64,000 bases of DNA from an uncultured Actinomycetes bacterium (GTDB lineage: Bacteria; Actinomycetota; Thermoleophilia; UBA2241): contig CAVYCN010000010.1 in the NCBI GenBank assembly GCA_963767005.1, positions 32,001 through 96,000 of the forward strand, read 5' to 3'. The notes beneath the pieces were generated by a model. That model was given only the letters and a program-made list of their open reading frames with translations. It was not told the origin of the DNA and ran no database searches. Position 1 is the first letter of the stretch. The number at the start of each line of letters is the position of its first letter. Positions 36,208 through 60,464 of the stretch are shown piece after piece. A program made the translations under genes and the position numbers.

Positions 36208-39200
36208 TCAGAAGGATCGCACGGCGCGCACGAGGCAGGTGTCGCTCTTGGCGTGATCGGACTCGCTGCCGTTACCGAAGAGCTCCTGCCACGCATCGAA
36301 GAAGTCGCCCTCCGACGAGCTCCAGTAGTAGGGGGAGGCGGCGAAGGCTGTCCCTCCGTTGGCCGTCGCTGTGGCGTTGATCGCGGCGCGGTACGTGTAG
36401 AGCCAGTTGAGTTCGTCCCTGCTCGGCAGGTACCAGTCGCTGTAGCTGCCCCCGGTGTAGGCTCGGGCGAGGCCCGCGGCGTAGCCGGTGCCGGCGCCGT
36501 TCTGGGCGATGATCGCCGTGGTGTTCGCGAGGCCGGTGCCGAGCGCTGTGCTGGTCGCCCCGACGACCGTGCTCTGATAGGCGGGCAGTGCCCAGACGAT
36601 GCCCGAGCTCTGGTCGGTCAGGGCGGCGATTAGCCCGTGGCATTGCCCGGCAACGTAGCCCGTGTCGCCCGACTGGAAGATGTAGGCGACGACGCCGCCG
36701 CCGTAGAGCGAGCCTACCTGGATCGCGGTGGCGTGGAAGGTCACCGGCGAGCCGCTCAGGCTGCCGCTCGTCGCGGTCAAGGTGCAGGCACCGGCGGTGC
36801 TGCCCAGGGTCCAGCTGCCGACCGTGGCGATGCCGCTCGCGTTCGTTGTCGGCGTGAGGCCCGTGCCCGAGCCGCCGCCGCTGCCGATCGCGAACGTCAC
36901 ACTGGCGCCCGAGACCGGGTTGTTGCCGACGTCGGTCACCAGCACGCTCGGGTTGACGGCGACCGCACTGCCCGGGGAGGCGACCTGGTTGTCGCCGGCG
37001 TTCACCGCGATCTTGCTCGCCGCGCCTACGCTCACCGTGACGTTAGCCGAGACGGCCGAGCTGAGCCCGCTGGAGGCGAAGGTCAGCGTGTAGTTGGTGC
37101 TCACGGTGCCGGCCAGGGTGAGGTTGGTGAAGGTGGCGACACCGCTCGAGGCGGCCACACCGCTCGAGGCCTGGCCGCCGCCCAGCGTGCTGCCGCTCGA
37201 GGAGGTCACGGTGACCGTGGCCGAGCTCGAGGTCACGACGTTGCCGCCCGCGTCCTCGACCTTGACCACGGGCTCGATCGAGAGCAGCGCACCGCAGGCG
37301 CCGCCCACCGGCTGGGTGGTGATCGCCAGCTTGGTGGCCGTCCCGACCGTGACCGTGACGTTAGCCGAGACGGCCGAGCTGAGCCCGCTGGAGGCGAAGG
37401 TCAGCGTGTAGTTGGTGCTCACGGTGCCGGCCAGGGTGAGGTTGGTGAAGGTGGCGACACCGCTCGAGGCGGCCACACCGCTCGAGGCCTGGCCGCCGCC
37501 CAGCGTGCTGCCGCTCGAGGAGGTCACGGTGACCGTGGCGCTGCTGGTCGTCACGTTGCCGGCCGAGTCTTCGATCTTGACCACGGGCTCGATCGAGAGC
37601 AGCGCACCGCAGGCGCCGCCCACCGGCTGGGTGGTGATCGCCAGCTTGGTGGCCGTCCCGACCGTGACCGTGACGTTAGCCGAGACGGCCGAGCTGAGCC
37701 CGCTGGAGGCGAAGGTCAGCGTGTAGTTGGTGCTCACGGTGCCGGCCAGGGTGAGGTTGGTGAAGGTGGCGACACCGCTCGAGGCGGCCACACCGCTCGA
37801 GGCCTGGCCGCCGCCCAGCGTGCTGCCGCTCGAGGAGGTCACGGTGACCGTGGCGCTGCTGCCGGTCACGAGGTTGCCCTGGGCGTCCTGCACCTGGACG
37901 ACCGGCTCGGTGCCGAGCAGGCCGCCGCTCGCGCCGCCCACGGGCTGGGTGGTGATCGCCAGCTTGGCGGCCGCGCCCGGGGTCACCTGCACGTTAGCCG
38001 AGGTAGCCGAGCTGAGCCCGCTGGAGGCGAAGGTCAGCGTGTAGTTGGTGCTCACGGTGCCGGCCAGGGTGAGGTTGGTGAAGGTGGCGACACCGCTCGA
38101 GGCGGCCACACCGCTCGAGGCCTGGCCGCCGCCCAGCGTGCTGCCGCTCGAGGAGGTCACGGTGACCGTGGCGCTGCTGGTCGTCACGTTGCCGGCCGAG
38201 TCTTCGATCTTGACCACGGGCTCGATCGAGAGCAGCGCACCGCAGGCGCCGCCCACCGGCTGGGTGGTGATCGCCAGCTTGGTGGCCGTCCCGACCGTGA
38301 CCGTGACGTTAGCCGAGACGGCCGAGCTGAGCCCGCTGGAGGCGAAGGTCAGCGTGTAGTTGGTGCTCACGGTGCCGGCCAGGGTGAGGTTGGTGAAGGT
38401 GGCGACACCGCTCGAGGCGGCCACACCGCTCGAGGCCTGGCCGCCGCCCAGCGTGCTGCCGCTCGAGGAGGTCACGGTGACCGTGGCGCTGCTGCCGGTC
38501 ACGAGGTTGCCCTGGGCGTCCTGCACCTGGACGACCGGCTCGGTGCCGAGCAGGCCGCCGCTCGCGCCGCCCACGGGCTGGGTGGTGATCGCCAGCTTGG
38601 CGGCCGCGCCCGGGGTCACCTGCACGTTAGCCGAGGTAGCCGAGCTGAGCCCGCTGGAGGCGAAGGTCAGCGTGTAGTTGGTGCTCACGGTGCCGGCCAG
38701 GGTGAGGTTGGTGAAGGTGGCGACACCGCTCGAGGCGGCCACACCGCTCGAGGCCTGGCCGCCGCCCAGCGTGCTGCCGCTCGAGGAGGTCACGGTGACC
38801 GTGGCGCTGCTGGTCGTCACGTTGCCGGCCGAGTCTTCGATCTTGACCACGGGCTCGATCGAGAGCAGCGCACCGCAGGCGCCGCCCACCGGCTGGGTGG
38901 TGATCGCCAGCTTGGTGGCCGTCCCGACCGTGACCGTGACGTTAGCCGAGACGGCCGAGCTGAGCCCGCTGGAGGCGAAGGTCAGCGTGTAGTTGGTGCT
39001 CACGGTGCCGGCCAGGGTGAGGTTGGTGAAGGTGGCGACACCGCTCGAGGCGGCCACACCGCTCGAGGCCTGGCCGCCGCCCAGCGTGCTGCCGCTCGAG
39101 GAGGTCACGGTGACCGTGGCGCTGCTGCCGGTCACGAGGTTGCCCTGGGCGTCCTGCACCTGGACGACCGGCTCGGTGCCGAGCAGGCCGCCGCTCGCGC

Positions 39201-42200
39201 CGCCCACGGGCTGGGTGGTGATCGCCAGCTTGGCGGCCGCGCCGGGCACATAGGTCACGGTCGCCTGTGTCTGGCTGGCGCCGCCGCTCTTGACCGCGTT
39301 GCCGCCGAGGGTGGCGACGAAGACGCCGCTGCCGGTGGCGGTGGGGGCGGTCACGGTCGCGGTGTAGGTGCCGTTGCCGTTGTCGGTGACCGCGCCGATC
39401 GTGCCGGTGCCCGACGACCTCGTGATCGTGACCGTCGCGCCCCCGCTGGTGAGGCTGTTGCCGTTGGCGTCCTTGGCGGTCACAGTCAGCACCTGGGCAG
39501 CCGTGCCGTTGGCGGTGATGCTGGCGCTGGTCGGCGTGAGGGTCGAGTGCGTGGCGTCGGCCGCGCCCGGGGTCACCTGCACGTTAGCCGAGGTAGCCGA
39601 GCTGAGCCCGCTGGAGGCGAAGGTCAGCGTGTAGTTGGTGCTCACGGTGCCGGCCAGGGTGAGGTTGGTGAAGGTGGCGACACCGCTCGAGGCGGCCACA
39701 CCGCTCGAGGCCTGGCCGCCGCCCAGCGTGCTGCCGCTCGAGGAGGTCACGGTGACCGTGGCGCTGCTGGTCGTCACGTTGCCGGCCGAGTCTTCGATCT
39801 TGACCACGGGCTCGATCGAGAGCAGCGCACCGCAGGCGCCGCCCACCGGCTGGGTGGTGATCGCCAGCTTGGTGGCCGTCCCGACCGTGACCGTGACGTT
39901 AGCCGAGACGGCCGAGCTGAGCCCGCTGGAGGCGAAGGTCAGCGTGTAGTTGGTGCTCACGGTGCCGGCCAGGGTGAGGTTGGTGAAGGTGGCGACACCG
40001 CTCGAGGCGGCCACACCGCTCGAGGCCTGGCCGCCGCCCAGCGTGCTGCCGCTCGAGGAGGTCACGGTGACCGTGGCGCTGCTGCCGGTCACGAGGTTGC
40101 CCTGGGCGTCCTGCACCTGGACGACCGGCTCGGTGCCGAGCAGGCCGCCGCTCGCGCCGCCCACGGGCTGGGTGGTGATCGCCAGCTTGGCGGCCGCGCC
40201 GGGCACATAGGTCACGGTCGCCTGTGTCTGGCTGGCGCCGCCGCTCTTGACCGCGTTGCCGCCGAGGGTGGCGACGAAGACGCCGCTGCCGGTGGCGGTG
40301 GGGGCGGTCACGGTCGCGGTGTAGGTGCCGTTGCCGTTGTCGGTGACCGCGCCGATCGTGCCGGTGCCCGACGACCTCGTGATCGTGACCGTCGCGCCCC
40401 CGCTGGTGAGGCTGTTGCCGTTGGCGTCCTTGGCGGTCACAGTCAGCACCTGGGCAGCCGTGCCGTTGGCGGTGATGCTGGCGCTGGTCGGCGTGAGGGT
40501 CGAGTGCGTGGCGTCGGCCGCGCCCGGGGTCACCTGCACGTTAGCCGAGGTAGCCGAGCTGAGCCCGCTGGAGGCGAAGGTCAGCGTGTAGTTGGTGCTC
40601 ACGGTGCCGGCCAGGGTGAGGTTGGTGAAGGTGGCGACACCGCTCGAGGCGGCCACACCGCTCGAGGCCTGGCCGCCGCCCAGCGTGCTGCCGCTCGAGG
40701 AGGTCACGGTGACCGTGGCGCTGCTGGTCGTCACGTTGCCGGCCGAGTCTTCGATCTTGACGACCGGCTCGGTGCCGAGCAGGCCGCCGCTCGCGCCGCC
40801 CACCGGCTGGGTGGTGATCGCCAGCTTGGTGGCGGCGCCGGCGCCCAGCGTGAACGAGCTCGAGGTGACGGCCGCCAGTGATGTCGGCGTGAAGGTCAGC
40901 GTGTGGGATCCGGCCGTACCCGTCAGAATCAGGTTGCTGAAGGTGGCTCGACCGTTTGTGTCCGTGGTGACCGTGGTCGTGCCGCTCAATGCGCCGCCGC
41001 CCGAGGCGATCGAGGCGACCACGGCGACGCCGGCGACGGCGACGTTGTTGCCGCCCGCGTCGCGGAGCTGGACGACGGGCGCTGTGGCGAGGGGCGCACC
41101 GCTGAGCGCGCCGCCGGGCTGGGTGCTCAGTACGCACGCGGCGGCCGCACCGGACGCGATGGCGACGGAGCCGGAGGTCCCCGTCAAGGAGCCGAACTGG
41201 GACGTTGCCGTGAACGTGTGCTGGCCGGCGAGACCGGTGAACGTGAGCTCGTCGCTCAGGTCGGCGACCCCGTTCATGAAGTCGGACGCCTGGTCCAAGA
41301 CATTGAGACCCAGGGAACCGAGGCCGCCGATGGTCCCATCGTTCGGACTGGCGTAGACCGTGACGTGGTTGCCACTGGCGTCGAAGCTGGTGACGGTGTT
41401 GCCAAAGGCGTCTTCTGCGGTGATCGTGTCCGTGCCCGTCAGCGCCACGCCCACGGTCTGGCCGCTGGTGATGCTGACGGCGAACTTGGCCAGGGGGCCC
41501 GGCACGTAGTTGACGGTCGCCTGCGTCTGGGTCGTGCCGCCGTTCATTATCGGATCGTCGTTCAGAGTGGCTTCGAAGACGCCGCTGCCGGTCGCGGTCG
41601 GGGCGGTGACGGTCGCCGAGTAGGTACCGTCGAGGTTGTCGACGACGGGGCCGATCGTGCCTGAGCCGCCCGAAAGCTCCGTGATGGTGACGCTGTCACC
41701 GCCGAGCGTGAGGTCGTTGCCGTAGGCGTCCTTGACCTGCACCGTGATCGTCTGGCTGCTGCTGCCGTCGGCGGTGATCGAGGAGGTCGTCGGGCCGAGG
41801 GTCGACTGGGCTGCGTCTGCAGCGGCGTTGCTCACGCTGATCTGACCGGAGGTGCTGGCGCTGACGAGGCCGTCGGTCACTGTGAGCGAGACGTCGCTGT
41901 CGGCCATTGTCAGCGTCACCTCGGGCGTGGCGACGCCATCTACGAAATCGATCGAGGTGGGCGATACCGTCCCATCTCCGGTGCTGGCCGTCAGCGTCGC
42001 CGGACCGGCGTAGTCGGTCACGACGTTCCCATAGGCATCGTAGGCGGTCACGCTGACGGCGAAGGGGCTGCCGGCCGTCTGGGAACCACTCACCGCTCCG
42101 ATGTCGAAGTGGTCGAGCGGCCCGGGCGAATAGGTCACCGTCAGCTGCGTCTGGCTTGCCTCGCCGCTTTGCACGGCCTCGCCGTTCAGGGTGGCGACGA

Positions 42201-43413
42201 AGACGGCGCTGCCGGTCGCGGTGGGAGCGGTGACCGTGGCCGTGTACGTGCCGTCGCCGTTGTCCGTCACCGGGCTGACGGTGCCGCCGCCGGAGAGCGC
42301 CGCGATCGTCACGTTTGCGCCGCCGACACCCACGGGGTTGCCGTTCGCGTCGGTGACCGTCACCGTGATGACGGTCGTGCTGGTGCCGTCGGCCGTGATC
42401 GTGGTCGTGGCGCTTGTGAGCGTCGATCGGACCGGGTCGGCGGGACCGGGGACCCCGGTCGCGCTGAAGGTCACGGCGGGAAGCCCGGCGCATGACGCCG
42501 TCAGGCTGTTGGCGCCGGCCGCCGTGCCGAGGGTCCAGCTGCCGACCGTCGCCACGCCGCTGGCGTCGGTGACGGCGGCGGCGTCGGTCACGGTGCCGCC
42601 GCCGCTTGCCACGGCGAAGGTCACGGACGCATGGGGCACAGGACGGCCCTTCGCGTCGGTCACGAGGACGCTCGGGAGCACCGCGACGGCGCTTCCGGCG
42701 ACGGCCGACTGCGTGTCACCGGCGTGGGTGGCCACCTGTGCGGGCGGCGCGGCGATCGTGAAGTGGTAGCTCTTGCCCCAGCGGAACACCTTGCGCCCCT
42801 TGCTGCCGCGCACCTTCCAGGTGAGGGCCACGTAGCTCGGCGGCGCGCTGGGGATCTTCCACGACGTCTTGGCGATGCCCGTCTTCCTCATGATCAGCTT
42901 CGCACCCTGGTAGACGCGCAGTTCGTAGCGGTTGGCACCGCTCACCTTCGCCCAGGCGAACGTCGGCTGCAGCGTCGTGATGGTCCCCTGGGGGACGTTC
43001 GGGTCGATCTTGAACGCCGCGCTCGCGCTCCAGGGCCCCGCGCTCTTGCTACCAACGGCCCGGACCTTCCAGGTCAGCTTGGCGTACAGAGGCAGGCTCG
43101 TGGTTGCCTTCCACGTCCATGAAGTCTTTGCGAGCTTCACCTTGTCGAGGAGCAGCTTGCCGCCCTTGTAGACGCGCAGCTCGTACGTACGTGCGCCGGC
43201 GACCTTGCTCCAGCTGAACGTCGGCTTGACTGCCGTGACAGTGCCGGTCGGCGCCTCGACGACGGGCTTGACCAGGGTCGCAGCCAGCGCGGGAGCGGCG
43301 ACGGCGATGGAGCACAGCAGGAGCGCGGCCAGCAGGCCGAGCCCGGCAAGGCCGCGGCGCGTCGCGCACGCGCGAACGCTTCGGCGGCGATCGTCTTGTG
43401 TGTCAGCGTCCAT
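36208..43413 (-). CDS. Giant secreted Ig-repeat (Big_1/invasin-like) adhesin with C-terminal DUF1566-type domain, 2401 aa
   Basis: Signal peptide; two Lys-rich beta domains; DNGDGTYTAT invasin-like modules; ten ~105-aa repeats; C-terminal DWYLPSRDEL...YWSSSE...AW...VRAVRSF. Confidence 0.85.
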   Translation of the reverse strand: MDADTQDDRRRSVRACATRRGLAGLGLLAALLLCSIAVAAPALAATLVKPVVEAPTGTVTAVKPTFSWSKVAGARTYELRVYKGGKLLLDKVKLAKTSWTWKATTSLPLYAKLTWKVRAVGSKSAGPWSASAAFKIDPNVPQGTITTLQPTFAWAKVSGANRYELRVYQGAKLIMRKTGIAKTSWKIPSAPPSYVALTWKVRGSKGRKVFRWGKSYHFTIAAPPAQVATHAGDTQSAVAGSAVAVLPSVLVTDAKGRPVPHASVTFAVASGGGTVTDAAAVTDASGVATVGSWTLGTAAGANSLTASCAGLPAVTFSATGVPGPADPVRSTLTSATTTITADGTSTTVITVTVTDANGNPVGVGGANVTIAALSGGGTVSPVTDNGDGTYTATVTAPTATGSAVFVATLNGEAVQSGEASQTQLTVTYSPGPLDHFDIGAVSGSQTAGSPFAVSVTAYDAYGNVVTDYAGPATLTASTGDGTVSPTSIDFVDGVATPEVTLTMADSDVSLTVTDGLVSASTSGQISVSNAAADAAQSTLGPTTSSITADGSSSQTITVQVKDAYGNDLTLGGDSVTITELSGGSGTIGPVVDNLDGTYSATVTAPTATGSGVFEATLNDDPIMNGGTTQTQATVNYVPGPLAKFAVSITSGQTVGVALTGTDTITAEDAFGNTVTSFDASGNHVTVYASPNDGTIGGLGSLGLNVLDQASDFMNGVADLSDELTFTGLAGQHTFTATSQFGSLTGTSGSVAIASGAAAACVLSTQPGGALSGAPLATAPVVQLRDAGGNNVAVAGVAVVASIASGGGALSGTTTVTTDTNGRATFSNLILTGTAGSHTLTFTPTSLAAVTSSSFTLGAGAATKLAITTQPVGGASGGLLGTEPVVKIEDSAGNVTTSSATVTVTSSSGSTLGGGQASSGVAASSGVATFTNLTLAGTVSTNYTLTFASSGLSSATSANVQVTPGAADATHSTLTPTSASITANGTAAQVLTVTAKDANGNSLTSGGATVTITRSSGTGTIGAVTDNGNGTYTATVTAPTATGSGVFVATLGGNAVKSGGASQTQATVTYVPGAAAKLAITTQPVGGASGGLLGTEPVVQVQDAQGNLVTGSSATVTVTSSSGSTLGGGQASSGVAASSGVATFTNLTLAGTVSTNYTLTFASSGLSSAVSANVTVTVGTATKLAITTQPVGGACGALLSIEPVVKIEDSAGNVTTSSATVTVTSSSGSTLGGGQASSGVAASSGVATFTNLTLAGTVSTNYTLTFASSGLSSATSANVQVTPGAADATHSTLTPTSASITANGTAAQVLTVTAKDANGNSLTSGGATVTITRSSGTGTIGAVTDNGNGTYTATVTAPTATGSGVFVATLGGNAVKSGGASQTQATVTYVPGAAAKLAITTQPVGGASGGLLGTEPVVQVQDAQGNLVTGSSATVTVTSSSGSTLGGGQASSGVAASSGVATFTNLTLAGTVSTNYTLTFASSGLSSAVSANVTVTVGTATKLAITTQPVGGACGALLSIEPVVKIEDSAGNVTTSSATVTVTSSSGSTLGGGQASSGVAASSGVATFTNLTLAGTVSTNYTLTFASSGLSSATSANVQVTPGAAAKLAITTQPVGGASGGLLGTEPVVQVQDAQGNLVTGSSATVTVTSSSGSTLGGGQASSGVAASSGVATFTNLTLAGTVSTNYTLTFASSGLSSAVSANVTVTVGTATKLAITTQPVGGACGALLSIEPVVKIEDSAGNVTTSSATVTVTSSSGSTLGGGQASSGVAASSGVATFTNLTLAGTVSTNYTLTFASSGLSSATSANVQVTPGAAAKLAITTQPVGGASGGLLGTEPVVQVQDAQGNLVTGSSATVTVTSSSGSTLGGGQASSGVAASSGVATFTNLTLAGTVSTNYTLTFASSGLSSAVSANVTVTVGTATKLAITTQPVGGACGALLSIEPVVKIEDSAGNVTTSSATVTVTSSSGSTLGGGQASSGVAASSGVATFTNLTLAGTVSTNYTLTFASSGLSSAVSANVTVTVGTATKLAITTQPVGGACGALLSIEPVVKVEDAGGNVVTSSSATVTVTSSSGSTLGGGQASSGVAASSGVATFTNLTLAGTVSTNYTLTFASSGLSSAVSANVTVSVGAASKIAVNAGDNQVASPGSAVAVNPSVLVTDVGNNPVSGASVTFAIGSGGGSGTGLTPTTNASGIATVGSWTLGSTAGACTLTATSGSLSGSPVTFHATAIQVGSLYGGGVVAYIFQSGDTGYVAGQCHGLIAALTDQSSGIVWALPAYQSTVVGATSTALGTGLANTTAIIAQNGAGTGYAAGLARAYTGGSYSDWYLPSRDELNWLYTYRAAINATATANGGTAFAASPYYWSSSEGDFFDAWQELFGNGSESDHAKSDTCLVRAVRSF
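37033..40832. repeat. Near-identical intragenic tandem repeats (315/318-bp units; 633- and 957-bp higher-order periods)
   Basis: Ten copies of GGTCAGCGTGTAGTTGGTGCTCACGGTGCC; antisense ORF starts recur at 37094, 37412, 37727, 38045, 38360, 38678, 38993, 39635, 39950 and 40592. Confidence 0.95.
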
Positions 43414-43568
43414 GGCTCCCCCGGGTGATCACGGCGATCGAGGATTCGTCGGCGCATGGACCGCAGGCAGGCAGCAGCGCGCCGCAGACGGACCGGTGCG
43501 ACCGAACCCCTTCGCTCTCGTCAAGGCACGTCATGTATTGGCTCCCGATGGACGGATTCCTACTGGGT

Positions 43569-43612
43569 TCGTCGGCAGGCGGCCCGGCCGACTGGATGGG
43601 ACATGTGACTAG
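43569..43612 (-). promoter_or_regulatory. Shared 17-bp box plus sigma28-like promoter of the 2401-aa gene
   Basis: Minus strand reads CTAGTCACATGTCCCAT-CCAG-N15-GCCGACGA. Confidence 0.5.
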
Positions 43613-43621
43613 CCCCTGGAT

Positions 43622-43670
43622 GCGGAGAGGGCCGGCCGGGCGCACGCGCCGCCCGGCCGGCCCTCTCCGC
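43622..43670 (-). terminator. 21-bp perfect stem hairpin after the 2975-aa gene
   Basis: GCGGAGAGGGCCGGCCGGGCG-N7-CGCCCGGCCGGCCCTCTCCGC. Confidence 0.7.
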
Positions 43671-43685
43671 GAGCGCTACCCGGCG

Positions 43686-46600
43686 CTACTTGATGATCAG
43701 TTTCTTGGCGGTGAGCCTGGTCTGCCTGTTGCCGGCGAGGTCGACCGCCGACACCTTCCAGGTGTAGCTGCCCGGCTTGAGCTTCGCCTTGTACTTGTAG
43801 ACGAGGTTGCGGTTGGTCGCGGCCTGCTTGATCACGATGCGCTTCACGACCTTCTTCTTGAGGTAGATCGTGATCGTCACCCTCGCGTAGCCGCAGCTCG
43901 GCGATGCGTCGGTCACGCGGTACGACAGCTTGCCGACCTTGTTGTGCTTGATCGTCACATTCTTCAGGCCCTTGCCCGAGGGCTTGCCCAGGTCGATGCG
44001 CACGGTGGCGGAGCGAGCGGGGTTCTCGATCGTCCCGGCCGTGTTCACCGAGCGATAGAGGATGGTGGTCTGGCCGGCCGTGCTGATCGGGAGCGGTGTG
44101 CCCGCGGCGATCGGCGTCCAGGTGCCGCCGCCGTCGCGCGAGTACTCGGTGTGGTCGATCGGGGCGCCGCTGCCCGGTGTCGCGGTGAAGGTCAGCGAGA
44201 CCGGATGGTTCACCCAGGCGGCCGTCGGCAGGCCGTGGATGATCGTGTTCGGCATGGTCGGGTCGATGTTCACCGTGAAGGTGGCGATCGCCGTCGCGTT
44301 GCCGATGGCGTCGCTCGCCGTGTACTCGTAGGTGGAGCTGTGCGGCTGGCCGTCGGTCGGCAGCGGGACGTTCACAGTGGCCTGGGCGGCGTTCACCGGG
44401 GTCCAGGTCGCGGCGCCCTGCAGCCGGTAGTCGATCTGGCTCACACCGGCGCCGGCGTCGATCGCCGACAGGTGCACGGCAACGGCCGCGTTGTGCCAGT
44501 AGGCGTCGGCGTCGTTTGAGACGACCGGGCCCTGGGTGTCGATCTTCACCGAGCAGGTGCCCGTGGCGCTCGTGTTGCCGGCGTTGTCGGTCGCCTGGTA
44601 TTCGTAGGCGTGCACGCCGTCGTTGGAGCCGTCGCTCGGGGCCGGCACGACGAACTGGCCGTTCGTCGCCGGCAACCACGTCGCCGCGCCCTGCAGGCGG
44701 TACTGCACGCTCGCGATGCCGCTGCCGTTCGCGCCGTCGTCGGCCGTCACCGTGACCGTGACCGGCGCGTTGTACCAGGCGCTGTCGCTGTCGTCGCCCA
44801 CGGTCGGCGGCGTCGCGTCGATGTTGACGTAGCCGACGTTGGCCGGCGCCTCGAGGTTGCCGGCGGCGTCGACCGACCAGTATTCGATGGTATGCGAGCC
44901 GTCGCCGCTCACCTGGAACGAGCCGCTGTAGGTCTGTCGCGTGCCGCCGTCGATCGTGTAGTAGGTGGCGGCCACACCGCCGCTCATGCCCGAGGTCTTG
45001 TCGCTCGGCTCGAGCGTGACGGTCTGCGGCGTGGTCGCCCAGCCGGTCGTGGGGCTGCTCTGCAGGTCCTGGGTGGTCGTGGTCGGGGGTGTCTGGTCGA
45101 CGTTCAGGTAGCAGGTCTGCGTCACGCCGTCCACGTGGTAGCTGTTCTCGGCGTAGAAGACGATCACATGGCTGCCGTCGGTGCTCTCGGGGATCGTCAC
45201 CGTGTTGGCCGCAGTCTGCTGCGCGCCGCCGTCGACCGTGTAGTAGATCGTGAACGGCCCGTTGTCGCCGCCGGCGGTGATCGTCGCCGAAGCCGGCCCG
45301 GTGTGCCAGTCGGAGCTCGCGTCGGCGGTGAGGCCGTTGCTCTGCGCGTACGGGTTGGAGATGTTCACCCAGCCGGTGTGCGTGGCCTCGACGTTGCCGG
45401 CCTTGTCGGTCGCGTAGTAGGTGATCTCGTGCTGACCGTCGCCGCTGACCGTGAACTGGCCGCTGTAGGTCTGGGGACTGCCGGTGTCGAGCGTGTAGGT
45501 GATCGACTGCAGGCCCGAGACGGCACCCGTGCCGTCGCTCGCCGAGAGGCTCACTGTCTGGCTCGTGGTGCGCCAGTCGGAGATCGAGTCGGGGGCGAGG
45601 CCGGGGTCGGTCGAGGTCGGCGGCGTGGTGTCGATGTTCACGTAGCCGTGCTCGATGGCCTCGGTGTTGCCGGCGTTGTCGACCGACCAGTACGTGACGG
45701 CGTGCTGGCCGTCGGCGCTGATCGTGAACGGTCCCGTGTAGGTCTGCTGGGCGCCGCCGTCGATCGTGTAGGAGGTCGTCGCCACACCCGACAGGCCGTC
45801 GCTCGCGGTGAGGCTGACGAGCTGTGGCGAGTTCACCCAGCCCGAGTTGCTCGTGGCTGCGAGGTTGGTCGCCGAGGTGACCGGCGCCACGGTGTCGACG
45901 TTCACAAAGCCGACGTGCGGGGTCTCGATGTTGCCGATCTTGTCGACCGACCAATAGACGATGCGGTGGCTCTTCGAGCCGCTGACCGTGAACGCGGCGG
46001 TGTAGGTCTGGCGCGTCCCGCCGTCGAGGGTGTAGTACGTGACGGCCGCGCCGCCGCTCATGCCTGATCCCGCGTCGGACGCGGTCAGGTGGACGAGCTG
46101 GCTCGTCTGCTGCCAGCCGGTGTCGGCACTCGTCTGCAGATCGCTCGTCGTGGTCTGCGGCGCCTGCGTGTCGATCTTGACCGTGCAGGTGTGCAGTGTG
46201 CTCGTGTTGCCGGCGTTGTCGGTCGCCTGGTACTCGTAGGTCTGGGCGCCGTCGTCGCTGCCGCCAGCCGGCGCCGGCACCGTGAAGGCGTTGTTGGTCG
46301 CCGCGAGCCAGGTCGACGAGCCCTGCAGGCGGTACTGCGTGCTCGCCACGCCCGAGCCGCCGGTGTCGGCCGGCGTGAGCTGCACGACGACGTCGCTGTT
46401 GTGCCAGACAGCGTCGCTGTCGTCGGTCACGGTCGGCGGCGTGGTGTCGATGTTCACGTAGCCGAGCTTGGCCGTCTCGCTGTTGCCGGCGTTGTCGACC
46501 GACCAGTAGCCGACCATCGTGGAGCCGGCCGTCGATACCTGGAACGGCGTAATGTAGCTCTGGGTGCCCCCGCTGTTCAGGTTGTACGAGGTGCTTGCCA

Positions 46601-49600
46601 CACCGGAGCCGGTGCCGTCGCCGCCGGTCAAGGTGACCGTCTGGGGCGTGTTCTGCCAGCCCGAATGGTTGTTGGCCTGCAGGCCGAGGGCGCTCGTGGT
46701 GGGGGCGCGCGTGTCGATGTTCACCGTGCAGATGCCGCTGGCGCCGCCGACCACGCTCGCGTTACCGGCGTTGTCGATCGCCCGGTACTCGTAGGCGTGC
46801 GACCCGTCGTTCGAATGGTCGGACGGGGCTGCCACCGTGAAGCTGTTGCCGCTCGTGACGAGCCAGGTCTGGCTGCCCTGCGGCCGGTACTGGGTGGCGG
46901 CGATGCCCGAACCGCTGCCGTCGCTCGGGGTGAGCGTCACCGTGAACGCGGCGTCGTGCCAGGCGGCGCCGGCGTTGTCGGTCACGGTCGGTGCGGTCGT
47001 GTCGATGTTGACGTAGCCGCTGCCGGGGGCCTCGGTGTTGCCGGCCGCGTCGACCGACCAGTACGTGATGTGGTGCGAGCCCTCGGCGCTCACCGTGAAC
47101 GGCGTGCTGTAGGTCTGCTGGGCGCCATCTACCGTGTAGTAGGTGGTCGCGGCGCCCGAGACAGCGTCGCTCGCCGACAGCGTCACAGTCACCGGAGCGT
47201 TCTGCCAGCCGGTGCTCGCGCTCGCGACCAGGTTGGTCGCCGTCGTGGTGGGCGGCGTCGTGTCGATGTTCACGTAGCCGTTGTTGACCGCCTCGGTGTT
47301 GCCGAGCGCGTCGACCGACCAGTACGTGACCTGGTGCTGTCCGTCGCCGGAGACGGTGAAGGCGCCGGAGTAGGTCGCCTGGTCACTGCCGTCGAGCGTG
47401 TAGTACGTGGCGGCCGAGCCGCCGGTCATGCCGGAGCCGGAGTCGCTCGGGGCGAGGGTCACGCTGATTGGCGTCGCGTTCGTCACCCAGCCGCTGTGAT
47501 CGTCCGCCTGCAGGTTCGTGGCGGTCGTTGTCGGCGCCTGGGTGTCGATGTTCACGTAGCCGGTGTGCGTGGTCTCGGCGTTACCGGCGTTGTCGGTCGA
47601 GAAGTAGGTGACCGGGTGCGAGCCGTTCGCCGAGATCACGAACAGTACGGTGTAGGGGGTGGCGCTGCCGCCGTCGACCGTGTAGGTCGTGCTCGCGAGG
47701 CCCGAGCCACCGGTGTCGCTGGGACTCAGCGTGACGCTCTGGCTCGCGGTCTGCCAGCCGGTGGTCGCGCTGGTCTGCAGGCCGGTGGCCGTGGTCGTCG
47801 GCTTGGTCAGGTCGATGTTGCAGTAGCCGGTCTCGTGGACGCTTTGCACGCTCACGCTGTTCGTCGCGTAGTAGCTGACGGCGTGACTGCCCTGCGTGCT
47901 GAACGTCACGCTGGCGGGGCTGGCAGCGGTCGTCCAGGTGGTGCCGCCGTCGGTGCTGTAGGAGACGGTGATCGGCGTGTGGTCGCCGCTGCCCGTGATC
48001 GTCACCGTGGTGGCCGCCTTCTGCCACCCGGAGCTCGCGTCGGGCGCCAGGTTCGTCGCCTGGGCATTCGGGTTGGAGATGTTCACGTAGCCGGTCTTGT
48101 GGACGGTCACGTTGCCCAGCGCGTCGACTGCCCAGTACACGATCGCGTGCGAGGTGTTGACGGTGTTCGCGACGGTGAACGGGCCGGAGTAGGTGGTCTG
48201 GGCGCCGCCGTCGACCGTGTAGTAGATGTGGACCACGCCCGAGCCGGCATCGGTCGCGGCGAGCGTGACCTGCTGGCTCGCGGTCTGCCAGCCGGTCAGG
48301 TCGTCGACCTGCAGGCCGGTCGGTGTGACGACCGGTCCCTGGGTGTCGATCTTGACCGTGCAGGTGTGCGTCGCGCTCGGGTTGCCGGCGTTGTCGAGGG
48401 CGCGGTACTCGTAGATGCGCGCGCCGTCGTTCGAGCCGTCGCTCGGCGCCGCCACGACGAACTGGTTGCCGGTCGCGTCCAGCCACGTCGACGAGCCCTG
48501 CAGCCGGTACTGGGTGCCCGCGACGCCCGAACCGCCGGTGTCGTGCGGCGTGAGCGTGACGGGCACCGGCTGGTTGTGCCAGGCGTCGTCGGCGTCGTCG
48601 GCGACCGTCGGCGCCGTGCTGTCGATGTTCACGTAGCCGGTGTTCTGGCTTTCGATGTTGCCGGCGGCGTCGACCGACCAGTAGAGGACGGTGTGCGAGC
48701 TCTGGCCCGACACGCCGAACGAGTTCGTGTAGGTCTGCGCGGGCTGCGAGTCGAGCTTGTAGTAGGTGGTCGCCGTGCCCGACAGATCGTCGGTGGCGGC
48801 CAGGCTCACCGTCTGGCTCGTGTTCTGCCAGCCGGTCGTGGCGCTGCTCTGCAGGCCGGTCGCCGCGGTCTGCGGCGCTGTCCAGTCGATGTTCACGTAG
48901 CCGACGTTGGCCGGCGTCTCGATGTTGCCGGCCGCGTCGACCGACCAGTAGGTCACGGTGTGCGAGCGCTCGCCGCTCACCTGGAACGCGCCGCTGTAGG
49001 TCTGCTGGGCGCCGCCGTCGAGCGTGTAGTAGGTGGCGGCGCTGCCGTTGGCCATGCCCGATGTGGCGTCGCCGGCCGACAGGTTCACCGTCACCTGGGC
49101 AGCGTTGGTCCAGCCGCTCGTGGCGCTGCTCTGCAGGCCGGTCGCCGTGGTCGTCGGCGGCGTGGGGTCGATGTTCACGTAGCCGACGTTGGCCGGCGTC
49201 TCGACGTTGCCGGCCGCGTCGACCGACCAGTAGGTCACCCTGTGCGAGCGCTCGCCGCTCACCTGGAACGCGCCGCTGTAGGTCTGCTGGGCGCCGCCGT
49301 CGACCGTGTAGTAGGTCGCCGCGCTGCCGCCGGTCATGCCCGACGTCGCGTCGCTCGCGCTCAGGGAGACGCTCTGCGCGGTGGTCACCCAACCGGAGCT
49401 GCCGGTCGTCTGCAGGCCGGTCGCCGTGGTCGTCGGCGGCGCGCCGTCGATGTTCACGTAGCCGGTGTGCTGCGGCTCGATGTTGCCGACCGCGTCGACC
49501 GACCAGTACTTGACGGTGTGCGAGCGCTCGCCGCTCACCTGGAAGGCGCCGCTGTAGGTCTGCATGTCGCCGCCGTCGACCGTGTAGTAGGTCGCCGCGC

Positions 49601-52600
49601 TGCCGCCGGTCATGCCCGCGCCGCCGTCGCTCGCCGTGAAGCGGATCGTCTGGGCGCCGCTTACCCAGCCGCTCGTACCGGTCGTCTGCAGGCCGGTCGC
49701 CGTGGTCGTCGGTGCCGTGCTGTCGATGTTCACGTAGCCGGTGTTGTGCGTGGCGTCGTGCGCCTCGATGTTGCCGGCCACGTCGACCGACCAGTAGGTC
49801 ACCGGGTGCGAGCCGTCGCCGGTCACGAGGAACGGACCGGTGTAGAGCTGAGCCGAGCCGCTGTCGACCGTGTACCAAGTCGACGAGAGGCCCGAGCCGC
49901 CGGTGTCCGACGCGCTCAGCTTGACGGTGACGCCGGTCGTCGACCAGCCGCTCGCCTGGGTCGACTGCAGGTTCGTCGCCGCGGTCTGCGGCGCGGTCAG
50001 GTCGAGGTTCACGTAGCCGGTCTGGTGCAGGCTGTCGATCCCGACGTTGTTGGTCGCCCAGAAGACGACGGGGTGGCTGCCCTGCGTGCTCACCGTGAAC
50101 GAGGCGGGGTCGCTCGCGGCCTTCTGCGGCGTCGTGCCGTCGATGCCGTAGGTGACCGAGATCGGGGCGTGGTCGCCGGAGCCGGTGATCGTCACCGTGG
50201 CGGCGGTGTCCTGCCAGCCCGAGCTGCCATCGGCGGCGAGGCCGGCGGCCTGGGCGTACGGGTTGGAGATGTTGACCCAGCCGGTGTGCACGGCCTCGAC
50301 GTTGCCGGCCGCGTCGGTGGCCCAGTAGGTCACGGGGTGCTGCCCCTGGCCGGAGACGGTGAAGGGCGTCGAGTAGGTCTGGGTGCCGCCGCCGTCGATC
50401 GTGTAGGAGATGCTCGCCACGCCTGAGCCCAGGCCGTCATCGGCCGACAGGCTCACCGTCTGGCTCGTGGTGCGCCAGCCCGAAAGGTCGTCCGCCGCGA
50501 GACCGACAGCCGTCGTGGCCGGCGCGCTCGTGTCGATCCACACCGTGCAGCTGCCGATCGTGCTCGAGTTGCCGGCGTTGTCGAGGGCGCGGTACTGGTA
50601 GACGTGGACGCCGTCGGCGGAGTGGTCGGCCGGTGCCGCCACGGTGAAGGCGTTGCCGGTCGCCGTGGTCCACGTCGAGCCGCCCTGCAGCCGCTCCTGG
50701 GTGCCGGCCAGGCCGCTGCCGCCGCTGTCGGCGGGCGTCAGGTGGACGGTCACCGCCGCGTGGTGCCACAGGCCGTCGGAGTCGTCGGTGACCGTCGGCG
50801 CCGCCAGGTCGATGTTCACGTAGCCGGTGTTGGTAGCCTCGGTGTTGTTGACCGCGTCGACCGACCAGTACGTGACTTTGTGCGAGCCCTGGGTCGAGAT
50901 CGTGAAGGCGCCCGTATAGGTCTGTTTCGTGCCGCTGTCGATCGTGTAGTACGTGGCGGCCACGCCGGACAGAGCGTCGTTGCCGGCCAGGCTGACGACC
51001 TGGCTCACGTTCTGCCAGCCGGTCGTGCCGCTTGCCTGCAGGCCGGTCGCCGTGGTGGTCGGCGCCGAGGTGTCGATGTTCACGTAGCCGGTGTGGGTGG
51101 TCTCGACGTTGCCGGCGTAGTCGGTCGACCAGTAGGTGACGGTGTGCGAGCCGTTGCCGGAGACCGGGAACGGTCCGCCGTAGAGCTGCGCCGCGCCGCC
51201 GTCGACCGTGTACTTGGTCGTGGCCACGCCGGAGACGGCGTCGGTCGCCGTGAGCGTGACCGTCTGGCCGGCCGTCTGCCAGCCGGTGTTGCTCGCCGTC
51301 TGCAGGCTGCTCGTCGTCGTGGTCGGCGCGGTGGCGTCGATGTTGACGTAGCCGGTGTGGCTGGTCTCGGTGTTGCCGCCCTTGTCGACCGACCAGTATG
51401 TGATCTTGTGCGAGCCCTGGGTCGAGATGGTGAAGGGCGCCGTGTAGGTCGTCTGGGCGCCGCTGTCGATCGTGTAGTAGGTGGCGGACACGCCGGATTG
51501 CGAGTCGGTCGCGTTCAGGATGACCTGCTGCCCCGCCGTCTGCCAGGTGCTGCCTGAGGACTGCAGGCCGGTCGCCGTGGTGACCGGCGGGGTCGAGTCG
51601 ATCAGGTAGGTCTGGCAGGTGCCGCCGGCGCCGCAGGCCCACAGGCTGCCGCCGGCGCCGCAGATGCCGCGCTGGGTCTGCGTGGTCGCCGAGGTCTGCG
51701 TCGCCCACGACGAGCCGCCGTTGGTGGTGCGGTAGATCACGCCACCACCGCCGATCACCCAGGCGTTGTTCGCGTCGGTCGCATATGTGTCGTAGAGCGT
51801 CTGCGTCGTGGTCGGGGTGAGGGTCTGCAGCGTCCAGTTCGTGCCGCCGTTCGTCGTGTGGCTGACGGCGCCGGCGCTGCCGGTCACCCAGCCGACCGAC
51901 GAGTTGACGAAGGAGATGCCGCGGAGCTGCTGCGTGGTGCCCGACGTCTGCGCCGTCCAGTTCGTGCCGCCGTTGGTCGTGTGGCGCACGCCGCCGCCCG
52001 TGGTGATCAGCCAGCCGTTGTTTGTGTCCGTAAAGGCGACGCCGTAGATGGTGCTCGTGATGCCCGTGGTCTGCGCCGTCCAGGTGGTGCCGCCGTTCGT
52101 GGTGTGGCGGACGACGCCGCCGGTGGTGCAGAACCAGCCGTTGTTGGCATCGACGAACGACACGCCGTAGATGGTGCCGGTGACGCCCGAGGTCTGCGTG
52201 GCCCAGCTCGTGCCGCCGTTCGTGGTGTGGTAGACGACCCCGCCGCCGCCGACGGCCCAGCCGTTCTGGTTGCCGACGAAGCAGACGCTGCGCAGGCTCT
52301 GCGTGGTGGTCGGCGTCAGCGTCTGGGCGGCCCAAGTCGTGCCGCCGTTGGTGGTGTGCCTGATGTTGCCGGTGCCGCCGGCCAGCCAGCCGTTGCTGGC
52401 GTCGGCGAACCAGGCGCCATACCAGGTGACGTTGACGCCCGGCGACTGCGCCGTCCAGGCGTTGTAGGTGGCGGCCCGCGCCGTCGTCGCGCCGCAGACG
52501 CCGGCGGCGGCCAGGACGACGAGGACGACAGCTACGCAGGCGCCACACAGGCGGCGGCGGCGGCGTGGCCCGGCGAGCGGACGTCTGCTCGACCACGGGT

Positions 52601-52613
52601 ACGCCTTCATCAC
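43686..52613 (-). CDS. Giant secreted surface protein: YCF48/BNR propeller, ~28 Ig-like (OmpL47/chitobiase-C-like) modules and Lys-rich C-terminal domain, 2975 aa
   Basis: Signal peptide; six TTNGGxxWxxQT repeats; about 28 modules, mostly YT(I/V)DG...YWSVDxAGNxE...GYVNID; basic C-terminal ~100 aa. Confidence 0.88.
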   Translation of the reverse strand: MMKAYPWSSRRPLAGPRRRRRLCGACVAVVLVVLAAAGVCGATTARAATYNAWTAQSPGVNVTWYGAWFADASNGWLAGGTGNIRHTTNGGTTWAAQTLTPTTTQSLRSVCFVGNQNGWAVGGGGVVYHTTNGGTSWATQTSGVTGTIYGVSFVDANNGWFCTTGGVVRHTTNGGTTWTAQTTGITSTIYGVAFTDTNNGWLITTGGGVRHTTNGGTNWTAQTSGTTQQLRGISFVNSSVGWVTGSAGAVSHTTNGGTNWTLQTLTPTTTQTLYDTYATDANNAWVIGGGGVIYRTTNGGSSWATQTSATTQTQRGICGAGGSLWACGAGGTCQTYLIDSTPPVTTATGLQSSGSTWQTAGQQVILNATDSQSGVSATYYTIDSGAQTTYTAPFTISTQGSHKITYWSVDKGGNTETSHTGYVNIDATAPTTTTSSLQTASNTGWQTAGQTVTLTATDAVSGVATTKYTVDGGAAQLYGGPFPVSGNGSHTVTYWSTDYAGNVETTHTGYVNIDTSAPTTTATGLQASGTTGWQNVSQVVSLAGNDALSGVAATYYTIDSGTKQTYTGAFTISTQGSHKVTYWSVDAVNNTEATNTGYVNIDLAAPTVTDDSDGLWHHAAVTVHLTPADSGGSGLAGTQERLQGGSTWTTATGNAFTVAAPADHSADGVHVYQYRALDNAGNSSTIGSCTVWIDTSAPATTAVGLAADDLSGWRTTSQTVSLSADDGLGSGVASISYTIDGGGTQTYSTPFTVSGQGQHPVTYWATDAAGNVEAVHTGWVNISNPYAQAAGLAADGSSGWQDTAATVTITGSGDHAPISVTYGIDGTTPQKAASDPASFTVSTQGSHPVVFWATNNVGIDSLHQTGYVNLDLTAPQTAATNLQSTQASGWSTTGVTVKLSASDTGGSGLSSTWYTVDSGSAQLYTGPFLVTGDGSHPVTYWSVDVAGNIEAHDATHNTGYVNIDSTAPTTTATGLQTTGTSGWVSGAQTIRFTASDGGAGMTGGSAATYYTVDGGDMQTYSGAFQVSGERSHTVKYWSVDAVGNIEPQHTGYVNIDGAPPTTTATGLQTTGSSGWVTTAQSVSLSASDATSGMTGGSAATYYTVDGGAQQTYSGAFQVSGERSHRVTYWSVDAAGNVETPANVGYVNIDPTPPTTTATGLQSSATSGWTNAAQVTVNLSAGDATSGMANGSAATYYTLDGGAQQTYSGAFQVSGERSHTVTYWSVDAAGNIETPANVGYVNIDWTAPQTAATGLQSSATTGWQNTSQTVSLAATDDLSGTATTYYKLDSQPAQTYTNSFGVSGQSSHTVLYWSVDAAGNIESQNTGYVNIDSTAPTVADDADDAWHNQPVPVTLTPHDTGGSGVAGTQYRLQGSSTWLDATGNQFVVAAPSDGSNDGARIYEYRALDNAGNPSATHTCTVKIDTQGPVVTPTGLQVDDLTGWQTASQQVTLAATDAGSGVVHIYYTVDGGAQTTYSGPFTVANTVNTSHAIVYWAVDALGNVTVHKTGYVNISNPNAQATNLAPDASSGWQKAATTVTITGSGDHTPITVSYSTDGGTTWTTAASPASVTFSTQGSHAVSYYATNSVSVQSVHETGYCNIDLTKPTTTATGLQTSATTGWQTASQSVTLSPSDTGGSGLASTTYTVDGGSATPYTVLFVISANGSHPVTYFSTDNAGNAETTHTGYVNIDTQAPTTTATNLQADDHSGWVTNATPISVTLAPSDSGSGMTGGSAATYYTLDGSDQATYSGAFTVSGDGQHQVTYWSVDALGNTEAVNNGYVNIDTTPPTTTATNLVASASTGWQNAPVTVTLSASDAVSGAATTYYTVDGAQQTYSTPFTVSAEGSHHITYWSVDAAGNTEAPGSGYVNIDTTAPTVTDNAGAAWHDAAFTVTLTPSDGSGSGIAATQYRPQGSQTWLVTSGNSFTVAAPSDHSNDGSHAYEYRAIDNAGNASVVGGASGICTVNIDTRAPTTSALGLQANNHSGWQNTPQTVTLTGGDGTGSGVASTSYNLNSGGTQSYITPFQVSTAGSTMVGYWSVDNAGNSETAKLGYVNIDTTPPTVTDDSDAVWHNSDVVVQLTPADTGGSGVASTQYRLQGSSTWLAATNNAFTVPAPAGGSDDGAQTYEYQATDNAGNTSTLHTCTVKIDTQAPQTTTSDLQTSADTGWQQTSQLVHLTASDAGSGMSGGAAVTYYTLDGGTRQTYTAAFTVSGSKSHRIVYWSVDKIGNIETPHVGFVNVDTVAPVTSATNLAATSNSGWVNSPQLVSLTASDGLSGVATTSYTIDGGAQQTYTGPFTISADGQHAVTYWSVDNAGNTEAIEHGYVNIDTTPPTSTDPGLAPDSISDWRTTSQTVSLSASDGTGAVSGLQSITYTLDTGSPQTYSGQFTVSGDGQHEITYYATDKAGNVEATHTGWVNISNPYAQSNGLTADASSDWHTGPASATITAGGDNGPFTIYYTVDGGAQQTAANTVTIPESTDGSHVIVFYAENSYHVDGVTQTCYLNVDQTPPTTTTQDLQSSPTTGWATTPQTVTLEPSDKTSGMSGGVAATYYTIDGGTRQTYSGSFQVSGDGSHTIEYWSVDAAGNLEAPANVGYVNIDATPPTVGDDSDSAWYNAPVTVTVTADDGANGSGIASVQYRLQGAATWLPATNGQFVVPAPSDGSNDGVHAYEYQATDNAGNTSATGTCSVKIDTQGPVVSNDADAYWHNAAVAVHLSAIDAGAGVSQIDYRLQGAATWTPVNAAQATVNVPLPTDGQPHSSTYEYTASDAIGNATAIATFTVNIDPTMPNTIIHGLPTAAWVNHPVSLTFTATPGSGAPIDHTEYSRDGGGTWTPIAAGTPLPISTAGQTTILYRSVNTAGTIENPARSATVRIDLGKPSGKGLKNVTIKHNKVGKLSYRVTDASPSCGYARVTITIYLKKKVVKRIVIKQAATNRNLVYKYKAKLKPGSYTWKVSAVDLAGNRQTRLTAKKLIIK

Positions 52614-52693
52614 CGACCAGCCCCCTTCGCTACGCTCGCGCGCGCGGAAAATCGCTCGTGTTCACCACCACTTCGACCACGCATCGCTCCCAT

Positions 52694-52737
52694 TACTCGG
52701 CATGAGTACGAGGGAAGTTAATGGGACGTTTGCCTAG
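52694..52737 (-). promoter_or_regulatory. Shared 17-bp box plus sigma28-like promoter of the 2975-aa gene
   Basis: Minus strand reads CTAGGCAAACGTCCCAT-TAAC-N15-GCCGAGTA. Confidence 0.55.
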
Positions 52738-52934
52738 GTAGGCGACCCTAGGGGGGTAGGGAACGGTGCCCAGACGGTCTGGGGAAGGGGCCCTATGGCG
52801 CGGCGCTGCGCGGGCGGGCCGCCGGGCGGCTCGCCCGCCCGCGCCGGTCAACGCCGTAGGATGGCCGTGCGGCGGTGGTACGGGTGCTGCGGCGGCGCGG
52901 AGCGCCGCCGCACTCGGGCGAGACGGGAGGCGCG

Positions 52935-56249: not shown

Positions 56250-56277
56250 TCAAGCACCCCCGCTCCGCTGCCGATAG
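56250..56277 (+). promoter_or_regulatory. sigma28/FliA/WhiG-like promoter
   Basis: TCAAG-N15-GCCGATAG, 65 nt upstream of TTG 56343. Confidence 0.5.
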
Positions 56278-60435: not shown

Positions 60436-60464
60436 CTAAGCCGCGGGTCGCAACGCGCCGATAC
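60436..60464 (+). promoter_or_regulatory. sigma28/FliA/WhiG-like promoter
   Basis: CTAAG-N16-GCCGATAC, 69 nt upstream of ATG 60534. Confidence 0.55.

Follow-up and report, generated by a model that had tools for sequence, protein, structure and literature searches.

Why should two neighbouring genes for giant secreted proteins, separated by a strong hairpin, carry nearly the same sequence upstream? The question arises in a 64,000-nucleotide (nt) stretch of contig CAVYCN010000010.1 (positions 32,001 to 96,000 of the forward strand, assembly GCA_963767005.1; here called the window) from an uncultured bacterium of the Thermoleophilia, in which genes A and B lie one behind the other on the minus strand. 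A reading made from the DNA letters without database searches (the sequence-only reading) had proposed that an activator, bound next to the -35 of a sigma-28-family promoter, co-regulates both genes as part of a dedicated adhesin programme. The similarity on which this proposal was built is accurately described. Upstream of gene A, CTAGGCAAACGTCCCAT (52737-52721, minus strand) agrees at 14 of 17 positions with CTAGTCACATGTCCCAT upstream of gene B (43612-43596, minus strand), and exactly 19 nt further on each is followed by a similar element, GCCGAGTA in A (52701-52694, minus strand) and GCCGACGA in B (43576-43569, minus strand). A scan of the 3.44-Mb genome for the full pattern gave two matches only, promoters A and B. 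When random pairs of upstream regions were compared with the same GCCGA-anchored procedure, 12 out of 20,000 gave 14 matches or more. The similarity is exact and is not due to chance.

The common element is a real one, with a length of 16 bp rather than 17 because the leading C is not conserved. Box A (TAGGCAAACGTCCCAT, 52721..52736, minus strand) is a likely activator site centred at about -42 and scores 22.7 bits on a matrix built from relatives only, as compared to 17.0 bits for box B (TAGTCACATGTCCCAT, 43596..43611, minus strand). The two promoters had been called identical in architecture, and this holds for the box, the spacer and the sigma-28/WhiG-type -10 element, not for the -35 region: promoter A keeps a -35-like TTAA-CTT, and no -35-like bases follow box B. 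The residual TTAA (52718..52721, minus strand) is 16 nt away from the -10 and its first base is the last base of box A; the box does adjoin and overlap the -35 position. In all five orthologous promoters looked at, four of gene A (in the relatives G011, G002, G003 and G006) and one of gene B (in G011, where it reads TAGGCAGATGTCCCAT-N19-GCCGACCA), the box, the 19-nt spacer and the CGA are kept. Across five A promoters the mean pairwise identity is 0.86 in the box, as compared to 0.39 upstream of it and in the distal spacer; it is 0.80 in the -10, and the first 8 bases of the spacer are 0.74 identical vs. 0.39 for the remainder. The -35-like element reads TCAA in two of the four orthologues and TCTA in the other two (TCAA-CTT and TCTA-CTT). 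Promoter A is an intermediate form: its near-match to the -35 is conserved and overlaps the box by its first base.

The box was then found to be a family-wide motif. The genome under study (G000) was compared with its relatives (G0nn), the family set comprising 89 genomes. A search of 41 genomes for GTCCCAT-N19-GCCGA gave, amid many matches in coding regions, intergenic matches with extended upstream likeness before large secreted proteins. On a matrix made from 7 sites of relatives, the top three sites of the genome were the promoter of a third giant-protein gene (C2:152832, as contig:position), A and B. After retraining on 24 sites from relatives, 7 sites of the genome passed, with respect to none in each of 8 column-shuffled runs; the seventh lies inside a called open reading frame (ORF) and was excluded from the members. 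The consensus is TAGAC-N4-GTYCYAT. In the family set, the box alone gave 55 matches in 31 genomes (5 in the control), the degenerate box plus -10 gave 28 matches in 18 genomes (none in the control), and the box plus CGA with one mismatch gave 168 matches in 71 genomes (2 in the control), with the mismatches mostly in the central four bases of the box. At class level the zero-mismatch pattern was present in 18 of 49 other family genomes and in none of the 251 genomes from outside the family. A different family gave two box matches of 18 bits upstream of XRE genes, which fall inside a coding region and were discarded as chance. The box also occurs in tandem, as three copies with a 24-bp period before a second XRE gene in G011 (L069) and as two copies with a 19-bp period before FG-GAP genes (among L051, L061 and L062), suggesting that binding may be cooperative.

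Over 54 distinct boxes (from the 55 matches; many are orthologous, and they make up about 16 independent promoter groups by our own reading), CGA follows after 19 nt in 35 and after 18 nt in 7, while each other spacer from 12 to 26 occurs at most once. With a spacer of 18 or 19 in 42 of the 54, the box has the fixed spacing, the overlap with the -35 and the centre (about -41.5 to -43.5) of a class II activator site, its absolute location depending on a start site placed about 7 nt after the -10, that is, predicted near 52687 for promoter A and near 43562 for promoter B. The bases after CGA, unfixed by any search, were T in 34 and A or G in 44 of 52 cases, matching the sigma-28 -10 element GCCGATAA with its invariant central CGA; GCCGAGTA and GCCGACGA conform to it, and the family profile reads (G)CCGAT(A/G). 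The two bases before CGA are looser than in canonical WhiG promoters (G in 28 and C in 36 of 52). The sigma-28 -35 element, T(A/C)AA at 15-16 nt upstream, was found in canonical form in just 1 of 35 box promoters; promoter A matches it at 3 of 4 bases and promoter B has no match to it. The WhiG2 promoter consensus begins with T(A/C)AA-N16 (PMC12871210). The genome contains 27 canonical WhiG promoters at spacing 15-16, with respect to 2 or fewer at any other spacing from 11 to 21, and none of the 27 has a box score above zero. Box promoters and canonical WhiG promoters are thus almost exclusive classes.

For these reasons we consider it highly probable that the box and the sigma-28-type -10 together define an activator-dependent class of WhiG promoters, in which the WhiG holoenzyme would read the -10 and the box would bind the activator. 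The sigma-28-family gene that the sequence-only reading called for is present, as one WhiG over the family (equivalog) cut-off, and WhiG occurs in 178 of 201 class genomes. Its partner RsiG is a 93-amino-acid single-motif protein (C2:404687) that matches solved RsiG chains and gave no NCBIfam match; it carries the motif E-X3-S-X2-R-X3-H-X3-D, with the H variant of (Q/H) that is also seen in Conexibacter RsiG. Its single-motif form agrees with a placement in the Thermoleophilia, given the range over which this form is reported. The cyclic di-GMP (c-di-GMP) contact residues of WhiG appear as K37, G41 and R42, which are conserved and, as judged from their identical spacing, correspond to K57, G61 and R62 of S. 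venezuelae. Low c-di-GMP frees WhiG from RsiG in Streptomyces, and the binding has been shown for Rubrobacter (PMC12871210). The canonical WhiG targets of the genome include glycosylation and c-di-GMP genes, to which a looser scan adds pilM and pilT; such targets have been reported in Rubrobacter (PMC8325347). A flagellar role was set aside, as there was no flagellin match in the genome. Seven RpoD-like sigma genes (L003-L007, L009 and L010), some apparently truncated or frameshifted, were also noted in this 3.4-Mb genome.

As for the activator, we lean towards an orphan regulator encoded at C8:101162, in which an OmpR/PleD-like receiver is joined to a LuxR helix-turn-helix and the phosphorylation residues are intact (D10, D11, D54, T84 and K106). 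It was found in 82 of the 89 family genomes, with a single match in 81. At class level and E < 1e-35, it was present in 35 of 37 genomes in the family and in 0 of 163 outside, a family-only range that resembles the one of the motif. Its recognition helix is near-invariant, and a canonical WhiG promoter lies upstream of it in 26 of 30 loci. In these 30 loci no box was seen upstream of the regulator, the best score being 2.7 bits, and autoregulation through the box was discarded. The sequence-only reading had compared the box to LuxR/NarL sites of the DevR type: the best activator candidate is indeed LuxR-type, but in sequence the box is not a DevR/OsdR box, its left arm being TAGAC and not GGG. 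LuxR-type proteins were also listed in the genome, and other regulators listed are seven of OmpR type, one clear match of CRP type and one of AraC type. A DegU-like regulator encoded next to the third giant gene (C2:148921) was not retained as a general activator, since it was found in only 34 of 89 genomes and, with this query, not in the box-bearing G013, G014, G018, G021 and G022.

Two near-complete genomes, G051 (one contig, 98% complete) and G072, do not contain the regulator, and neither contains a box plus CGA at one mismatch. When two mismatches were allowed, G051 gave no match and G072 gave 2, both with a broken CGA, vs. 2 controls, while three regulator-bearing genomes gave 5, 9 and 5 vs. 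0, 2 and 2 controls. Both genomes keep WhiG and XRE. This joint loss of regulator and box is suggestive, not strong: it would arise by chance with a probability of about 0.09 and is weak as evidence, because 8 good genomes that bear the regulator have no one-mismatch match either. The best matches to the neighbouring gene have no adjoining regulator in G051 and G072, and the same is true of G062, which has the regulator.

Several observations weigh against the proposed class or its activator. In 12 of the 54 boxes CGA is at neither 18 nor 19, and one of these lies beside a groEL terminator (a reverse-orientation reading of this box was dropped, as it is unconserved in G011). The box pattern was tuned on 12 sites, 11 of which have spacer 19; of the other 42 boxes, 24 do. 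The box is palindromic only imperfectly, with two dyads in competition (best dyad scores 0.43-0.47), and binding by a simple homodimer would not readily account for this. In the class-level search for the regulator no more than 16 candidates were scored in each genome, and the one-mismatch box was absent in 10 of 32 good genomes, the 8 regulator-bearing ones included. Moreover, the link between regulator and box is one of co-occurrence only, among kin genomes that are not independent.

The same promoter class might be served by another protein reading the box, such as the family-conserved XRE protein, a heterodimer like BldM-WhiI, or a further factor, an alternative that we hold unlikely but take seriously. 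XRE occurs in 73 of the 89 genomes of the family, a WhiG promoter precedes it at 40 of 46 loci, second XRE copies carry the box in 5 of 5 cases looked at (one with three tandem copies), and the asymmetry of the box recalls the non-palindromic 16-bp BldM-WhiI site (PMC4125116). On the other hand, two families in which no motif was found have an XRE whose recognition helix is almost identical (33 of 34 and 16 of 17 genomes), the main XRE copy is preceded by a different palindrome in 34 of 46 loci (as compared to a background of 344 of 2968 genes), and G051 keeps XRE without any box. Should the box instead be a repressor site, its protein would block sigma region 4 at weak WhiG promoters until a signal arrives. 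The box does overlap the -35 position by one base, and the -35-like element of promoter A could act alone, but we regard this as improbable: there would be little activity to repress, because 34 of 35 box promoters have no canonical -35, and the 18-19 nt spacing is held across many unrelated target genes. Repressor sites are in general less bound to helical phase.

There might also be no activator at all: another sigma factor might use box and CGAT as its -35 and -10, or the box might be an extended WhiG contact. The bases before CGA are more relaxed, and several further sigma factors of groups 2 and 3 are encoded in the genome; nevertheless, a 16-bp two-armed element, whose 3' end is 21 nt from CGA, exceeds the known reach of sigma region 4, tandem boxes exist, and WhiG occurs across the class while the box is limited to one family. 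We find this explanation very improbable. It is hardly credible that the similarity arose by chance, or was left over from the duplication of an upstream region, and means nothing for regulation, even considering that the two sites lie at neighbouring genes and had been chosen by eye. No paralogue of gene B was matched among the proteins of the genome, gene A included, the spacers diverge while box and -10 stay, and the motif precedes unrelated genes in 71 of 89 genomes vs. 2 control matches.

The activator-dependent WhiG class, with the receiver-LuxR protein as activator, would work as follows, all steps being inferred for the host organism. A fall in c-di-GMP would make RsiG release WhiG, and the freed sigma factor would transcribe a first tier of promoters with a full -35, namely those of pilM, pilT, the glycosylation and c-di-GMP genes, and the regulator. 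Once phosphorylated, the regulator would bind the box near -42 as a dimer, substitute for the missing -35 contact and recruit the WhiG holoenzyme. A second tier, which the sigma factor on its own would likely read only weakly, would then be switched on, comprising three giant surface proteins (1,700-3,000 amino acids), a small RNA, a 57-amino-acid protein and an XRE paralogue. A regulator behind a WhiG promoter, acting through a box at other WhiG promoters, would form a feed-forward loop. Gene B, which lies behind the hairpin and has no -35, would depend wholly on the activator, and gene A may have basal activity. It is tempting, though less certain than its parts, to see in this a two-tier sigma-28 circuit under c-di-GMP control, in which an own receiver-LuxR co-activator on an asymmetric box replaces the -35, and a hidden class of WhiG promoters would make giant adhesin-like proteins, pilin clusters and a small RNA at low c-di-GMP.

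If this were true, adhesins would be made at low c-di-GMP, contrary to the rule that usually holds for them, and an entire tier would be absent from the WhiG regulons predicted so far in the literature. Such predictions rely on the -35/-10 consensus, and activator-dependent sigma-28 promoters are rare; the class described here is a defined case that can be reconstituted, with a sigma factor, an anti-sigma factor, a candidate for the activator and upwards of 160 natural sites. The RsiG-WhiG switch would reach beyond pili and govern the largest surface proteins in an uncultured lineage, and the use of two inputs before making proteins of 2,400-3,000 amino acids would be accounted for. A literature search of main texts, mostly in open-access papers, gave no description of the box or of its regulon. 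The class is a real and apparently undescribed variant of activator-dependent sigma-28 promoters, and the receiver-LuxR regulator is its likely activator.

The earlier interpretation is partly supported; the part without support is the dedicated adhesin programme, which is too narrow. The six intergenic members in the genome comprise, besides A and B, a giant FG-GAP gene, a ~75-nt non-coding unit, a gene for a protein of 57-66 amino acids and a second XRE gene; three are giant surface proteins and three are not, and most other large Ser/Thr-rich secreted proteins have no box. In fact, among 11 listed Ser/Thr-rich proteins of more than 800 amino acids, the box is directly upstream of A and B only, a further entry in that list representing ORF two of the split FG-GAP gene, with the box in front of ORF one. 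In relatives, boxes were also seen ahead of genes for receiver-only proteins, a PAS-like protein and pilin-like clusters. Beyond adhesins, the regulon takes in a small RNA, the 57-amino-acid protein, the XRE paralogue and signalling genes.

The FG-GAP gene (L041:9851-14831; C2:152850-157830) consists of two overlapping ORFs of 737 and 975 amino acids, a split that is a frameshift or an assembly error. The unit of about 75 nt (L064:1549-1625; C7, ~111980-112055) stands behind the best-scoring box promoter. An alignment over 10 genomes shows that its blocks GGAGACC and GAGAGGA are conserved and that its terminator hairpin has undergone compensatory changes. The unit is likely an undescribed WhiG-dependent small RNA; CsrA was discarded as its partner, since there is no CsrA match in the genome. 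The 57-amino-acid protein (L059:1602-1772; C4:152771-152971) is conserved, of unknown family and without a usable match in the atlas; its gene has a box promoter and is convergent with a GAF/GGDEF-type signalling gene. The palindrome upstream of the conserved XRE gene, GTTGYC-N6-GRCAAC (L076-L100 and L207-L222; the 34 of 46 loci given above), is found also near the box promoters of receiver-only and 57-amino-acid genes (7 of 52 sites) and likely marks a second regulon of the same network. Three proteins of 65-82 amino acids (C3:333060, C8:101919 and C12:103330) end in DRR/ERR repeats and lie near box, second-palindrome or canonical WhiG sites.

The consensus for CRP is TGTGA-N6-TCACA, which the box does not resemble. 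At the aer and trg promoters of E. coli, CRP is likewise a bound activator needed by a sigma-28 promoter (PMC2859248), and such promoters are there called few. CRP binds there at a site with its centre at -49.5 and acts via the C-terminal domain of the RNA polymerase alpha subunit, whereas the box, at about -42 from the inferred start, overlaps the -35 and differs in sequence and in factor family. A parallel in an actinobacterium is TcrA of Actinoplanes missouriensis, an orphan response regulator that directly activates units of a FliA-family sigma (PMC13083903, PMC12691653). Its site is a 21-bp direct repeat, nnGCA(A/C)CCG-n4-GCA(A/C)CCGn, which the box does not match when compared by eye with its profile; TcrA stands above the fliA genes, whereas the candidate regulator stands below WhiG in a genome where no flagellin was found. 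In Streptomyces (WhiG-WhiI and BldM-WhiI; PMC4125116), WhiG likewise transcribes an orphan response regulator and a 16-bp non-palindromic site comes downstream. However, the BldM-WhiI site is TGnnCCGnnCGGGTGA and the BldM site TCACcCgnncGgGTGA, neither of which the box matches by eye against its profile, and BldM and WhiI are atypical regulators, whereas the candidate retains D10, D11, D54, T84 and K106; the available text of that paper nowhere describes the BldM-WhiI targets as WhiG promoters. The DevR/OsdR box (PMC5069765) is also a 16-bp site of a NarL/LuxR-type regulator, and some right arms here read GTCCC, but OsdR has a symmetric G/C palindrome, AGGGCCGATCGGCCCT, as its consensus, while the box has a TAGAC left arm and a right arm that ends in AT. 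With the known WhiG2 and single-motif RsiG systems, this genome shares a WhiG2-type sigma, a single-motif RsiG and canonical promoters ahead of genes for type IV pili and c-di-GMP. A class with no -35 would have been missed by the earlier WhiG2 regulon studies because they sought -35 plus -10; a 2026 search admitted one mismatch, only in the -10, and the words 'activator' and 'Thermoleophilia' are absent from the main text of that paper.

Gene A (43686..52610, minus strand) encodes a secreted protein of 2974 amino acids with a signal-peptide-like N-terminus, a YCF48/BNR propeller, 25 OmpL47-type beta-barrel stretches and a Lys-rich C-terminal domain. Gene B (36208..43413, minus strand) encodes a secreted protein of 2401 amino acids with invasin D3/Big_1 Ig-like repeats and a C-terminal Lcl_C domain; these domains are the basis for calling both proteins adhesins, a label that should be taken as provisional. 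The strong hairpin reported between the genes was confirmed (43622..43670, minus strand): its perfect 21-bp GC stem has a z of -6.2, none of 200 shuffles was equally stable, and it starts 15 nt past the gene A stop and ends 10 nt before box B. There is no U-tract of the kind found in intrinsic terminators, the hairpin being followed by ATCCAGGGG. In G011 a hairpin occupies the same location with changed sequence and conserved pairing. The hairpin between genes A and B is likely a terminator or 3'-end stabiliser. Rfam at gathering thresholds gave no match, and hence no known RNA or riboswitch, in the whole window. A match to the GTTGYC-N6-GRCAAC type (52729..52746, minus strand) overlaps the left arm of box A; it was not evident in the four orthologous A promoters compared and may be due to chance. 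The leader of gene B contains an out-of-frame ORF of 43 codons (43403-43534, minus strand) with a ribosome-binding-like GGGAG, which overlaps the gene B start codon; in G011 the main frame of the gene B orthologue is open further upstream. Elsewhere in the window, canonical WhiG promoters lie at approximately 56250-56277 (plus strand), before a gene for a GH123-like secreted protein, and at approximately 60437-60464 (plus strand), before a gene for a GAF/HD-domain signalling protein.

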